A DNA stretch of 64,000 bases from a virus (lineage: Duplodnaviria > Heunggongvirae > Uroviricota > Caudoviricetes), in IMG/VR virus record IMGVR_UViG_2718218100_000003; one strand, 5' to 3'. A program made the position numbers. How positions within the stretch are numbered: the stretch's first letter is position 1; the number at the start of each line of letters is the position of its first letter. Positions 6,001 through 12,000 of this stretch are shown here, piece after piece.

Positions 6001-9000
6001 AGCCAGCAACAGGCCACCCTGCAATGGCATATTGCATGGTGTGCTCCTTATTTATACATAACGAAAAACGCCTCGAGTGAAGCGTTATTGGTATGCGGTA
6101 ACGCCGCGCTCAGGCGGCTTTGATAGTCATATCATCTGAATCAAATATTCCTGATGTATCGATATCGGTAATTCTTATTCCTTCGCTACCATCCATTGGA
6201 GGCCATCCTTCCTGACCATTTCCATCATTCCAGTCGAACTCACACACAACACCATATGCATTTAAGTCGCTTGAAATTGCTATAAGCAGAGCATGTTGCG
6301 CCAGCATGATTAATACAGCATTTAATAAAGAGCCGTGTTTATTGAGTCGGTATTCAGAGTCTGACCAGAAATTATTAATCTGGTGAAGTTTTTCCTCTGT
6401 CATTACGTCATGGTCGATTTCAATTTCTATTGATGCTTTCCAGTCGTAATCAATGATGTATTTTTTGATGTTTGACATCTGTTCATATCCTCACAGATAA
6501 AAAATCGCCCTCACATTGGAGGGCAAAGAAGATTTCCAATAATCAGAACAAGTCGGCTCCTGTTTAGTTACGAGCGACATTGCTCCGTGTATTCACTCGT
6601 TGGAATGAATACACAGTGCTGTGTTTATTCTGTTGTTTATGCCAAAAATAAAGGCCACCATCAGGCAGCCTTGTTGTAAATGTTGCAGGTATCAAGTAAG
6701 TAATTAGATGGAGCGCCATAAATTATGAATTCATCGTTTGTCGGGTCCATCTCCATCTCTTGTCCTATTGCCATTCTTGCGTCAGTGTCGTCAGCGGCGA
6801 AGCATAAAACAGCCCACGCACCCATTGTTTTAAAAAGAACTGCAATTGGCTGTGGTTTTACTGAATTTGCGTTAGCGCGAAAATCACAAATCGCACTTTC
6901 ATGAAATTCCATATATCACCTCAAATAAGTGGTTTGCTGCCTAATTTCATTTTCTGGCGACCAACACAAGTCATCTTGCTGTCAGTTGTTTGGATTTACG
7001 GTAGCCTGCCGCGTAAAGAGCTACATTTGGAAGACAAGTTGAGCCTTCATATTTTCTGGTCAACGTTGTCAGTGTTATTACTTCTGCTCTCATTGCTGGT
7101 TTGCGTTTGCATTGTAAGACCACTCGTGATGGGGTTGGCCTGTGTAGTTTGTCGGAGCTAATCGCCTCCTGACTTTGCAGGTTTGCGCGACGAGCTCTAC
7201 GGCGAGAAGCTGCGGTGCCTTTAAATTCTGTTTTTCTGGACATAGATTCCTCCCGAATAAACTTTGGCGATGCAATCTCGAAGCTCCTCCTGAGACGGTT
7301 GCTTCGGCATTGCATCCCACAGCTTATGTGGTTGGGTGATCTGGCTTTTCAGCCACGTAGTCGAGAGTCGACGTTGTTTAAAGAGCCTGCCAGTCTGTTC
7401 CATTTGGCTTCCAGCGTCCTGCTGATGGTTAAATAGTACGATATGTACTTAACTTGGTCAATACAATTTGTTCTAAAATGGGGCGTTTTTTTACAACGCT
7501 TTGTATTTAATAGTATTGTTTTTTAGCGTGGGTGTATTGCCTCGGCGATGTAAGGAGAGATCAGAATTGCGTTGTTTAGTGAGTTGTATCTATTTATTTT
7601 CCAATAAATACAATTGGTTATGTGTTTTTTTGGGCGAGAGGAAAAGAAAACCCGGCATGGAGGCCGGGTTGATGATTAGCGGTGTGGCCTTGAGCGATAA
7701 TGCTCACACACATGTTCAAGATTTCCATGCCTTATCCGTTCATAGGCATTCACATGAACTTCTCGATCGAATTGGTCATTCAAATTGTATGTAGACATCT
7801 GTGTTTTCTCATATTGGCGGCAGCCCTACAACCGCTTGAAAAAATGTACCAGACGCGCTAAGGTTACATCGCAAATATTGTGTACCTTAACAAGGGCTCC
7901 TTTTGGAGGCTCTGGTTAAACAGCATCAATGTCGGACTGGGGAGTTGGACATTGTGCTGAATGCTTTTGCATTATTGAGGCCGAACGTAAACCTTCAGAA
8001 TTGAAGAGATGCGTTCGGCTTCTTCGTTTGTGATATCGTTAGGAATGCCTTTAATCGTTACTGTAACCCCTGATTCAGGTCGAAGAACTACTGGAAGATC
8101 ATAGGTATGAAGTGCATTAGCCTTGCCTTCGACTTTTGTTGGTTCGCCAGTCAAATCTTTTTCCTCACTGGATTCTTTGTCAATCGGAGTGTATGGGATT
8201 TCTTCACCAGACTGGAAAGCTACAAACTTTTTGATTGCACTTTCCATGCGGCTTTTATATGCAGTAATGCTGCTGTCGCTAGGCTTCGGCTCAGTTGCGT
8301 TGATGTATCGCTCGGCAAGCTCATTCACATCAAGCTGAGTAACATCACCCATTTCCTCTTCTTGGACTACCGTTAAGAGGCGAGCGGATGAGTTTTTTAA
8401 ATTTCGAGCGGTGGCCTCCTTCATTATGTTCAGCGACATAAGCTCTTCAAGGAAGTCCTTGAATGCCTGCACGCTAACGTTTGACTTTGCCATTTGCTCT
8501 CTCTCTAAGTTATTGACTCAGATCGAGTTTATCCAGGAATTGATTTGCATGCAAGACTCAAGTCTTGAGAATTTCCGTTCAAGATCCACTCTCAATAAAA
8601 AAGGCCGCACCTCTGCGACCTTTCATCTCCTAAATCTCTTTTCTCTTACCTAAAGAAACAGCAGGCTGGGTCAGCCCTAACAACTTCAAGTGCATCGGTC
8701 AGAGAAAGCTCCGTGCTATACAGGTGTTATTTCATATCTTTTTGCATCCAATAAATTTTCCATCTGTCCAGAGAGCGGATGCACTTGATTCTTGTTGATG
8801 GCAGGACGTTTTTTCACCTGCCTCACCCTGCCATACAGGACGCTGCTCACCGATATCTATCGTCCGGTCATTGATGTTATAGACAATATCCAGATCATTA
8901 CGGATATACTCAGATGGCCTTATGCTTTCAATGAATAGATGAACTTCTTTTTGACCGCTTGATACTCATGGCCATTAAACTCCATCTATCCTCTTTACCC

Positions 9001-12000
9001 AAACGTCTCTTCAGGCCATTGGCTGGCGATAACTTTCCCCACAACGGAACAACTCTCATTGCATGGGATCATTGGATATTGCGGGTTTAGTGGTTGTAGA
9101 AACACCTGACCGCTATCCCTGATCAGTTTCTTGAAGGTAAATTCATCACCACCAAGTCTGGCTATGCAGAAATCGCCGGGCTCAACAGCTTGCTCAGGGT
9201 CAACCAGAATTAACATCCCGTCAGGAAAACTAGGTTTGGAACCTGTTGGTGCGGTCATTGAGTTACCTTCAACCTCAAGCCAGAATGCAGAGTCACTGGC
9301 TTTTTTGGTTGTGCTTACCAATCTCTCCGCATCACCTTTGGTAAAGGTTCTGAGTTCTGGAGAGAACATCCCAGCCTGAACATGAGAAAAAACAGGGTAC
9401 TCATATTGTTTTTTAACTGGGGCCGATGAGTATTCGCCAACAGGTGAAAATGTCCCGTCGTGGTTGAATGATATGTTATCAATACCAAGGTATTTAAACA
9501 CCACACCAATATCACTAAGAGATGGATGACGAGATCCGCGCAACCAGTGTCCAATTCCACCCTGCGTCATACCTAGCTCTTCGGCTAACTTCTCTTGAGT
9601 TATGCCGAGCTCTTTCATTCTGGATCTAGCCAGTTCATACCATTTCATTTTCATGTCCTTATTATTACGCTCTGTACTGGAACCATCCATGCACAATGTG
9701 TATTTTTACTTGTATTTGAGAAGTACATATTGTATTTTTTTATTCATGGTTACTATGGAGGGCATATGAGCAACCTACGAAAATATCGAGAGTCACTGAA
9801 TATCTCTCAAACAACACTTGCTAAGGCAGTTGGATGCACACAGGGAGCTATCGGACATTGGGAATCTGGTCGTCGCTTCCCAGACCTTAAAACATGCCGT
9901 GCTCTTGTTGCGTGTCTAAACAAGTTAGGCGCAAAAGTAAGTCTTGATGACGTGTTCCCGCCGGAGCACAAAGCCGCTTAATAAGCGGAGCCGCTCTTTG
10001 TAACAACGGACATTCGTCCTACGTCGCTGAAAAGCGAGTCCCAAGATATCTGACCAACTAAGGCCATATGCGTTTCCACGCATACCTTTCAACTAACTAT
10101 TCACTATTGGAAATCTTAAGAAATGGAACGAACAAGTTACAGCAAACTATCACAGCGCGACGTTGATCGCGCAGAAACAGATTTACTCATCAACCTGTCA
10201 ACGCTTACACAGCGCGGTCTGGCAAAGATGATTGGCTGTCATGAATCGAAGATAAGCAGAACGGACTGGCGGTTTATTGCTTCGGTCTTGTGTGCTTTCG
10301 GAATGGCATCAGACATCAGTCCGATTAGCAGGGCTTTTAAGTATGCGCTTGATGAAATCACAAAGAAAAAATCCCCGGCTGCCACCGAGGATTTTAAGCA
10401 AATTGATATGCAATTCTGAGGGAATTACTGGATCAATCCACAGGAGTAATTATGACAAAACGTCGTAAGAAATACCAGGAAAAAGAAGAGATTCGACACC
10501 CTGATTCACCTGAGGGATTAGTGGTAGCCGCAGCAAATAACAGGGCGTTCGCAGAGCGCCTTGTTGGTGTTTACAGACTAGCCAAAGCAGGAGTGAAACA
10601 TGGGCGTCGTTAAGTTAGCTGATTACAGGCCTCAACTGGAGGTCGTGGAGCATCGCGTGGCAGATACCGAAGATGGTTTCATGCGCGTTGCTAACGAGAT
10701 TACCGACAGTCTGCTGATGGCTGATTTAACCGTCCGGCAGTTGAAGGTGATGCTCGCTATCATGCGCAAGACATACGGATTCAATAAGCCGATGGATCGA
10801 CTCACAAACACGCAGATAGCAGCCATGACAGGTATTCATCACACTCATGTTTGCGCTGCCAAGCGCCAGCTTATTGAGCGTAAATTCCTCATTGCTGATG
10901 GCGTGAAAATCGGAGTGAACAAGGTGGTTTCTCAGTGGATTAGCCAGGACAGCTTAACATTAGCTAAAACAGCTAATAAAACATTAGCCAAGTCGGCTAA
11001 TGGGTATAAGCCAAGTCAGCTAAACACAAAAGACAATATACAAAAGACAATAAATACAAATACCCCCTTACCCCCTAACGGGGATGGCGATGGGCAGGTT
11101 AAACCTGAACGTCGCAAGGCAGAACGAATCGACTACGAATCCTTCCTGAACGCCTACAACACCGAAGTCGGTGACAGACTTCCACACGCTGTTGCGGTCA
11201 ACGAGAAACGAAAACGCCGCCTGAAGAAAATTATCCCGCAACTGAAAACGCCAAACGTGGACGGTTTCAGAGCGTATGTCAGGGCGTTTGTGCATCAGGC
11301 CAAGCCGTTTTACTTCGGAGACAACGACACGGGCTGGACGGCAGATTTTGATTACCTGCTGAGGGAAGATTCGTTAACGGGAGTTCGGGAAGGGAAGTTT
11401 GCAGACAGGGGGATTGCATGAGACAGGATATCGAAGCTAGCGTTATCGGTGGCCTGCTGATTGGTGGATTAACTCCAACCGCCAGTGACGTTCTGGCAAC
11501 GCTGGAGCCGGAAGCGTTTTCAATTCCGCTCTACCGGAAAGCCTTCGAGGTTATTCGCAAGCAGGCGAGAAACAGAAACCTAATCGATGCGCTGATGGTT
11601 GCCGAGGCGTGCGGAGAGGAGCATTTCACGTCAATCCTGATGACCAGCAAAAACTGCCCGAGTGCCGCAAACCTGAAGGGATATGCCGGAATGGTCGCGG
11701 ATAACTATCACCGCCGTCTGGTGCTGGAAATCATGGATGAAATGCGTGAACCAATCCAAAGCGGAACCATCGACGCATCGAGTCAGGCGATGGATGAACT
11801 TGTAAAGCGTCTTTCAGCCATCAGAAAGCCCCGTGACGAGGTTAAACCTGTACGGTTAGGGGAAATCATCACTGACTACACTGACACGCTTGACAGGCGT
11901 CTGAGGAACGGAGAAGAGTCAGATACCCTGAAGACCGGAATCGAAGAGCTTGACGCTATCACTGGAGGGATGAACGCAGAAGACCTGGTGATTATCGCCG

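Follow-up and report, generated by a model that had tools for sequence, protein, structure and literature searches.

A Mosaic CI Repressor with a Lambda-Type C-Terminal Module in a Probable Stx2c-Converting Lambdoid Prophage

Results

A lambda-type C-terminal module is joined to a different DNA-binding domain

The DNA analyzed here, referred to as the window, is a 64,000-nucleotide stretch of a Caudoviricetes virus (IMG/VR record IMGVR_UViG_2718218100_000003). Its minus strand contains an open reading frame (ORF) at positions 8995–9696 that encodes a CI repressor. The protein is very probably the prophage repressor of a Shiga toxin (Stx) 2c–converting lambdoid prophage identical to phage 2851, and it consists of two modules, an N-terminal DNA-binding domain that differs from that of lambda CI and a C-terminal module that is almost indistinguishable from lambda's. 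Over 8 kb (6500–14500), the DNA of the window shows 100% identity to that of the Stx2c phage 2851 (FM180578). The interval 8995–9765 comprises cI and the entire cI–cro intergenic region, its last position adjoining the ATG of cro (9766). In the preferred reading, translation would begin at ATG 9654 and yield a protein of 219 residues, which provides the numbering used below unless lambda is named.

In this 219-residue protein, the Pfam family HTH_3 covers residues 11–58 (E 1.9e-10, 41 bits; cut-off 23) and Peptidase_S24 (PF00717) covers residues 87–209 (E 1.1e-28, 99.7 bits; cut-off 23.3), the domain composition of LexA/CI-type repressors. The reference for comparison was lambda cI (NC_001416, 37227..37940). 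In a protein alignment, 135 of the C-terminal 136 residues, ending in ETFG, are identical to lambda CI (99.3%), whereas the N-terminal domain and linker agree at 17 of 81 aligned positions (21%). The DNA comparison follows the same division, with window positions 8999–9405 matching lambda 37231–37637 without gaps at 93.4% identity (27 mismatches, E = 1e-177) and no lambda DNA similarity found in window positions 9406–9765. The best matches in the PDB are all lambda repressor (3bdn, 8gmu, 2ho0, 1kca, and 1f39).

An earlier reading, made from the sequence alone, had held that the C-terminal ~140 residues of CI look the same as those of lambda, while the N-terminal helix-turn-helix region and the operators differ. 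The shared part proves to be 136 residues long, and the difference of the remainder is borne out by the protein identity, by the lack of a DNA match, and by a different operator consensus, described below. Uniform divergence across the protein, which the sequence-only reading had named as the pattern that would speak against a mosaic, is not what the alignment shows; amino acid identity drops from 99.3% to 21% across a sharp junction.

That reading had also proposed aligning the gene to lambda cI as the means of locating the junction, and a codon-by-codon comparison now places it at 9376–9408. On its 5′ side, the shared block opens with ten codons (9405–9376) that are identical to lambda in DNA. 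The first differing codon (9408–9406) encodes Gln in the window and Glu in lambda, and the sequence upstream of it is unrelated; at the 3′ side, the similarity to lambda ends at the stop codon, which is TAA in the window and TGA in lambda. Ten residues separate the junction from the Ala-Gly cleavage site downstream of it, so that the lambda-type part takes in the whole cleavage-site region together with the Ser/Lys dyad and the oligomerization domain. The cleavage site Ala94-Gly95 and the dyad Ser132/Lys175 align with A112-G113, S150, and K193 of lambda CI (counting Met1). Lambda CI (NP_040628; PDB 3BDN, 1F39, and 2HO0) and the window CI have the Ala-Gly site, the dyad, and all oligomerization surfaces in common. 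From the 99.3% identity to the lambda module, we infer that the window CI would undergo RecA*-stimulated autocleavage.

The shared module is an old allele, exchanged at a recurrent junction

Two other explanations of the resemblance to lambda were weighed. In the first, the gene would be a recent hybrid, produced by a direct cross of lambda (or HK97) with a Stx phage, such that its C-terminal half is literally lambda's. The near-perfect amino acid identity of this half with both lambda and HK97 CI would fit such an origin, as would two further lambda-like patches nearby (7555–7670, 87.5%; 10358–10459, 79%). However, the 27 mismatches to lambda in 407 bp are essentially all synonymous. Of the differences across the 136 shared codons, 27 are synonymous and one is non-synonymous, which corresponds to a synonymous divergence (dS) of 0.39, a non-synonymous divergence (dN) of 0.003, and a ratio of the two (omega) of 0.008. 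A dS of this size with almost no amino acid change indicates that lambda was not a recent donor of the shared module. Among phages beyond the window's own cI group, the closest C-terminal DNA is that of HK97 (94.6%), vB_EcoP-683R2 reaches 91.5%, and no such phage exceeds ~95%, which argues for an independent old lineage. A recent cross is therefore extremely improbable. By these comparisons, the C-terminal modules of the window and lambda are old sister alleles, kept near-invariant by purifying selection. HK97 was also considered as a second N-terminal partner of the lambda-type module and was rejected, because its CI is essentially lambda CI, with the same immunity.

The second explanation dispenses with recombination altogether, and assumes vertical descent together with lambda cI, during which the N-terminal domain evolved rapidly under diversifying selection and the C-terminal domain remained frozen. 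The C-terminal omega of 0.008 does indicate extreme purifying selection, and N-terminal domains are the faster ones in the family, with an N-terminal omega of 0.126 between the window and phage Dewey and, for phage SPN9CC, 48% identity to the window in the N-terminal domain compared to 80% in the C-terminal domain. Yet the window and lambda have a C-terminal dS of only 0.39 while their N-terminal DNA cannot be aligned, and the boundary is abrupt, with the switch completed within one codon. Also against vertical descent, the N-terminal domain of phage Dewey is 96% identical to the window's with a dS of 0.165, as opposed to a C-terminal dS of 0.46.

Per-domain identities and neighbor-joining trees for 120 cluster representatives, obtained from a search of ~5.8 billion proteins, bear on the same question. 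Homologues with an N-terminal domain 75–83% identical to that of the window have C-terminal domains that are only 79–85% identical, much farther away than lambda's at 99%. The N-terminal tree resolves into three clean clades, namely the window type, the lambda type, and a third type of 212–215 residues, and these three types are intermingled in the C-terminal tree. This incongruence effectively refutes vertical descent, which we consider exceedingly unlikely as an account of the gene.

A mosaic relation to lambda CI is thus supported, as the sequence-only reading had proposed in calling the repressor recombinant, although that term carries no direction; the C-terminal tree does not resolve whether the window or the lambda lineage was the recipient. 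The exchange does not stand alone. Two other pairs of representatives, P0002/P0065 and P0049/P0003, jump from unrelated to 99–100% identical at the same motif as the window and lambda. The third N-terminal type (for example, P0053, P0065, and P0107) is carried on lambda-type C-terminal domains, and one representative, P0028, has a window-type N-terminal domain (78%) on a distant C-terminal domain (57%), which shows that the window-type N-terminal module has been joined to other C-terminal partners as well. Given the incongruent domain trees and the other pairs that break at the same junction, module exchange at the (Y/F)(E/D)YP(V/L)FS.VQAG motif is recurrent in the CI family. Proteins that combine a window-type N-terminal domain with a lambda-like C-terminal domain form a widespread lineage in their own right. 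The idea that Dewey and vB_EcoP-683R2 have a different C-terminal module was rejected, since both carry the mosaic of the window.

The N-terminal domain is accompanied by its own Cro and putative operators

The nearest distinct relatives of the N-terminal domain are found in CI proteins of the Salmonella phage SPN9CC/epsilon34 type (48–52% identity), and the farther ones include the P22/L/ST64T C2 family. CI of the SPN9CC/epsilon34/g341c type is collinear with the window CI over its full length, and shares with it the MKM(N/K)WY start region, a similar arrangement of −10 element and ATG, and palindromes of the ATACAnnnTGTAT type upstream. With 48–52% identity in the N-terminal and 80% in the C-terminal domain, both of its modules are more distant alleles, and its immunity is probably different.

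Repressor and Cro are paralogous HTH_3 proteins in phages 434 and P22, but not in lambda. In the window, the N-terminal domain of CI is 35% identical to the phage's own Cro (BLASTP, E 9e-13), and the recognition-helix segments of Cro and CI are alike (TQGAIGHW and TQGGIGHW, respectively). By this similarity, Cro is an HTH_3 paralogue of CI and not a Cro of the lambda type.

Six operators, three at the right operator region (OR) and three at the left (OL), were transferred from the VT2-Sakai and AP005153 annotations, where all of them, like the promoters, are marked "putative." They share the half-site pattern A(G/A)TAC(A/G)-NNN-TGTA(C/T)T with the consensus AGTACAnnnTGTACT, which is unrelated to the lambda operators (TATCACCGCCAGTGGTA). 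The palindrome AGTACANNNTGTACT, allowing at most two mismatches, occurs six times in the window compared to an expectation of 1.18, and four of the six occurrences fall at OL or OR. Neither PR nor PRM passed the thresholds of a generic promoter scan; both were read by eye and by analogy to VT2-Sakai.

CI does not belong to the imm-lambda group, as its N-terminal domain and its operator sequences are both non-lambda. A second comparison concerns the CI of phage 933W, likewise the prophage repressor of a Stx phage and likewise equipped with a Peptidase_S24-type C-terminal half. It is only 19% identical to the window CI over 157 residues, has different operators, and shares no module with it. From the non-lambda HTH_3 domain with operators of its own and the low identity to 933W CI, an immunity distinct from both lambda and 933W can reasonably be inferred.

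Translation most likely starts at ATG 9654

The start codon of cI had been called ambiguous in the sequence-only reading, and the four in-frame candidates that it listed (TTG 9696, ATG 9690, ATG 9654, and ATG 9648) are all present. Annotated starts vary accordingly, with 9648 used for VT2-Sakai (AP000422), 9654 for phage 2851, and 9690 for AP005153 and RefSeq WP_001302016.1; the same gene is given 217, 219, or 231 residues across the records WP_001302016.1, BAC77937.1, BAA94122.1, and CAQ82008.1. The choice is nevertheless less ambiguous than claimed, because sequence context and comparison favor 9654 and oppose 9696 and 9690.

The mRNA made from lambda PRM for cI is leaderless. On the cI strand, the window reads gcgt-AATAAT-aaggac-ATG(9654)-aaa-ATG(9648), and the spacing from the predicted PRM −10 element to the ATG at 9654 equals that of lambda PRM (tagatt-taacgt-atg). 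The equivalent sequence in SPN9CC is TATAAT-ttaagg-ATG-aaa-ATG, preceded by an in-frame TGA eight codons upstream. In 18 family members, with N-termini such as MKTEW, MKKNW, and MKTHW, the second Met is missing, which leaves only the one equivalent to 9654. On this comparative evidence, we favor ATG 9654 (219 residues) as the best start call. On PRE transcripts, translation could also start at ATG 9648, which is preceded by AAGGA at a distance of 7 nt.

Alternatively, the real product could be a protein of 231 or 233 residues, starting at ATG 9690 or TTG 9696 and in keeping with RefSeq/PGAP and AP005153. The frame is open to 9696 not only in the window but also in near relatives, among them Dewey, 683R2, P0001, P0002, and P0006, and ATG 9690 was chosen by PGAP and in two GenBank records. 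However, both codons are located in the putative OR2/PRM −35 region, which makes them unlikely starts, and they lie upstream of the predicted start of the PRM transcript; no Shine-Dalgarno sequence is found upstream of either one. The in-frame stop codon closes the extension in SPN9CC, and where longer extensions are called in other, more distant family members, their sequences show no relationship apart from residues that result from translation of the −10 element. Between the window and Dewey, the putative extension differs in three codons, all of them non-synonymously. We therefore regard the longer protein as very unlikely, and the RefSeq/PGAP model of 231 residues (ATG 9690) is probably 12 codons too long.

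A single residue distinguishes the module from that of lambda

The sole amino acid difference from lambda in the 136 residues replaces Trp130 of lambda CI (counting Met1) with Leu. Among the 120 family representatives, 77 carry the motif surrounding this position; 75 of them have Trp, one has Met, and one (P0027) has Leu. The latter is a partial E. coli protein that is identical to the window CI over the residues covered. Leu is common to all Stx-phage records with identical C-terminal DNA.

It is conceivable, although unlikely, that the Trp-to-Leu change is adaptive in the Stx-phage allele by shifting the rate of self-cleavage or the monomer–dimer balance, and that, in addition, mixed dimers of heteroimmune repressors couple the stability of co-resident prophages. 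Such mixed dimers would be possible because many E. coli genomes hold two or three cI genes with the same C-terminal module. If this proposal were true, the shift would change the induction threshold and Stx output.

In some complete E. coli genomes, this cI or its C-terminal module is present in two to three copies, as in O157:H7 F6667, where it is found at two places. Co-resident prophages in such genomes share one repressor oligomerization domain.

The gene is a known and common Stx-phage repressor

Over all 771 query bases, the cI interval is 99.7–99.9% identical in DNA to numerous further Stx phages, among them VT2-Sakai, Stx1-converting phage, Stx2 II, 1717, YYZ-2008, and Nil2, and this near-identity across the whole cI coding region places it in the Stx-phage CI type "CI2c"/clade I. 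Among 5426 complete E. coli genomes, 775 carry at least 80% of the interval. The CI genes of phage 2851, VT2-Sakai, Stx2 II, 1717, and YYZ-2008 are the same gene without substantive difference, apart from an annotated start that varies by record (9648, 9654, or 9690); operators, cro, the type of cII, and the ORF of 173 codons downstream of cI are likewise the same.

The mosaic nature of this CI and the ambiguity of its start codon are already published (PMC3430580), and the present analysis adds no new biology in this respect. Smith et al. (2012, PMC3430580) reported that the coding regions of the cI2c genes of VT2-Sa, Stx2 II, YYZ-2008, and 1717 are identical while their annotated amino termini differ, that the carboxy terminus of lambda CI is 100% identical to the CI2c repressors, and that its amino terminus is unique, implying a difference in DNA binding. 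They also described a single-nucleotide change that creates a stop codon in VT2-Sa cI; this change is absent from the window cI. In another study, the CI2c-type repressors and lambda CI fall together in CI clade I, with an overall identity of 61% (PMC8951638). Literature searches for dedicated biochemistry of this repressor returned comparative-genomics statements only.

The surrounding locus has a lambdoid layout

The gene order N, OL/pL, cI, OR, cro, cII, O-like protein, and DnaB-like helicase is that of a standard lambdoid early region (Table 1). The immunity layout is lambdoid as well: a putative tripartite operator lies between the divergent cI and cro, another is located at pL, upstream of N, and cII follows cro. 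Lambda has the same logic, in which OR and OL comprise three operators apiece, PRM and PR diverge, and cI has a −10-to-ATG geometry suggestive of a leaderless cI mRNA. It differs in its lambda-type Cro, in the presence of rexAB where the window has the 173-residue ORF, in its operator spacings, and in Trp130.

Table 1. Features of the cI locus and early region in the window. Promoter elements are predicted and operators putative.
Feature	Position	Strand	Remarks
N-like antiterminator	6971–7315	−	
OL/pL region	~7430–7510		
pL	7461–7433	−	TTGACC, 17 nt, TACTAT
Putative OL operators (three)	7434–7450, 7459–7475, 7492–7508		AGTACAnnnTGTACT type
ORF between cI and OL	7972–8493	−	173 residues; match to PHROG 2602 (unknown function), E 3.5e-102
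cI, preferred reading	8995–9654	−	219 residues; begins MKMKWYEL at ATG 9654; stop TAA 8997–8995
Lambda-type module	8998–9405	−	136 codons; cleavage-site region, Ser/Lys dyad, dimerization/cooperativity domain
Sole amino acid difference from lambda	9319–9321	−	TTG (Leu) in the window, TGG (Trp130) in lambda
Mosaic junction	9376–9408	−	From codon-by-codon comparison with lambda
Non-lambda HTH_3 DNA-binding domain and linker	9406–9654	−	83 residues
Predicted PRM −10	9661–9666	−	AATAAT, 5/6 consensus match; followed by AAGGAC (6 nt) and ATG 9654
Putative OR3	9663–9679		TATTACGCTCTGTACTG; two mismatches to AGTACAnnnTGTACT; overlaps predicted PRM −10 and spacer
Predicted PRM −35	9689–9684	−	tggatg; overlapped by ATG 9690
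Putative OR2	9689–9705		ATGCACAATGTGTATTT; abuts predicted PRM −35; contains TTG 9696, overlaps ATG 9690
Putative OR1	9721–9737		AAGTACATATTGTATTT; one mismatch to consensus; overlaps PR −10
cro	9766–9981	+	71 residues; Pfam HTH_3, E 4.2e-12; named cro in VT2-Sakai and phage 2851 records
cII	10123–10419	+	Pfam Phage_CII
O-like initiator	10600–11421		273 residues
DnaB-like helicase	11418–12794		458 residues

The ORF downstream of cI, which occupies the place of rexAB in lambda, is kept in VT2-Sakai (H0093), phage 2851 (EP2851_20), and RefSeq (WP_001130059.1). Searches of Pfam, PHROGs, and PADLOC assign no function to it. It is presumably co-transcribed with cI in lysogens, and is a candidate for a lysogen-expressed moron or exclusion gene.

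Window positions 7555–7670 correspond to lambda 35708–35826, between OL3 and the rexB stop codon, and include a terminator-like hairpin on the minus strand (7670–7649). The segment looks like a lambda-type terminator of the immunity-region transcript, retained despite the replacement of rexAB. The second lambda-like patch, 10358–10459, spans the 3′ end of cII and the next intergenic stretch and corresponds to lambda 38592–38693, in a region that is otherwise non-lambda.

The replication module (10600–12794) is identical to its counterpart in phage 2851 and, by the description in PMC8951638, would be of the "Eru2" type. It is unlike the O and P genes annotated in VT2-Sakai, though cI, cro, and cII match, which places a mosaic boundary between cII and O.

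Discussion

In the model that we propose for this repressor, the HTH_3 domain (approximately residues 1–70 of the 219-residue form) would bind six 17-bp operators of the consensus given above, equally divided between OR and OL. When bound, CI would act as a repressor of PR and pL and, at OR2, as an activator of the weak PRM. The C-terminal 136 residues, a LexA/S24 module of the lambda type, would, as in lambda, confer dimerization, pairwise cooperativity, and RecA*-stimulated self-cleavage, and cleavage of CI would lead to prophage induction and Stx production. The two halves of cI genes in the family assort independently by recombination at the cleavage-site motif, hence the resemblance to lambda. 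The most likely start of translation would be ATG 9654, and the PRM transcript, like that of lambda, would probably be leaderless.

Several observations weigh against parts of this model. The Trp-to-Leu change affects a highly conserved site between the cleavage site and the catalytic core, and could alter cleavage behavior. The operator centers are spaced 32 bp apart between OR1 and OR2, 26 bp between OR2 and OR3, and 25 and 33 bp at OL, compared to 23–24 bp in lambda. With such spacings, pairwise cooperativity of the lambda kind is not guaranteed and may be organized differently. Lambda CI has been found to bind the VT2-Sakai operators weakly in vitro, with apparent KD values of 3.7–6.4 µM compared to 0.2–0.35 µM at lambda OR1/OL1 (PMC10742460); this binding is roughly 10–30 times weaker than that to its own operators and does not suggest shared immunity. 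Finally, experimental operator footprints, a mapped PRM 5′ end, or N-terminal protein sequencing of this CI were not found in the searchable literature.

As practical by-products, the analysis indicates that the RefSeq start is probably too long and that the domain junction is a recurrent point of recombination in the family. More generally, the stability of CI sets the induction threshold of a Stx prophage, and hence toxin output. The finding that a very common Stx-phage repressor carries the exact cleavage and oligomerization module of lambda makes decades of lambda CI biochemistry transferable to it.

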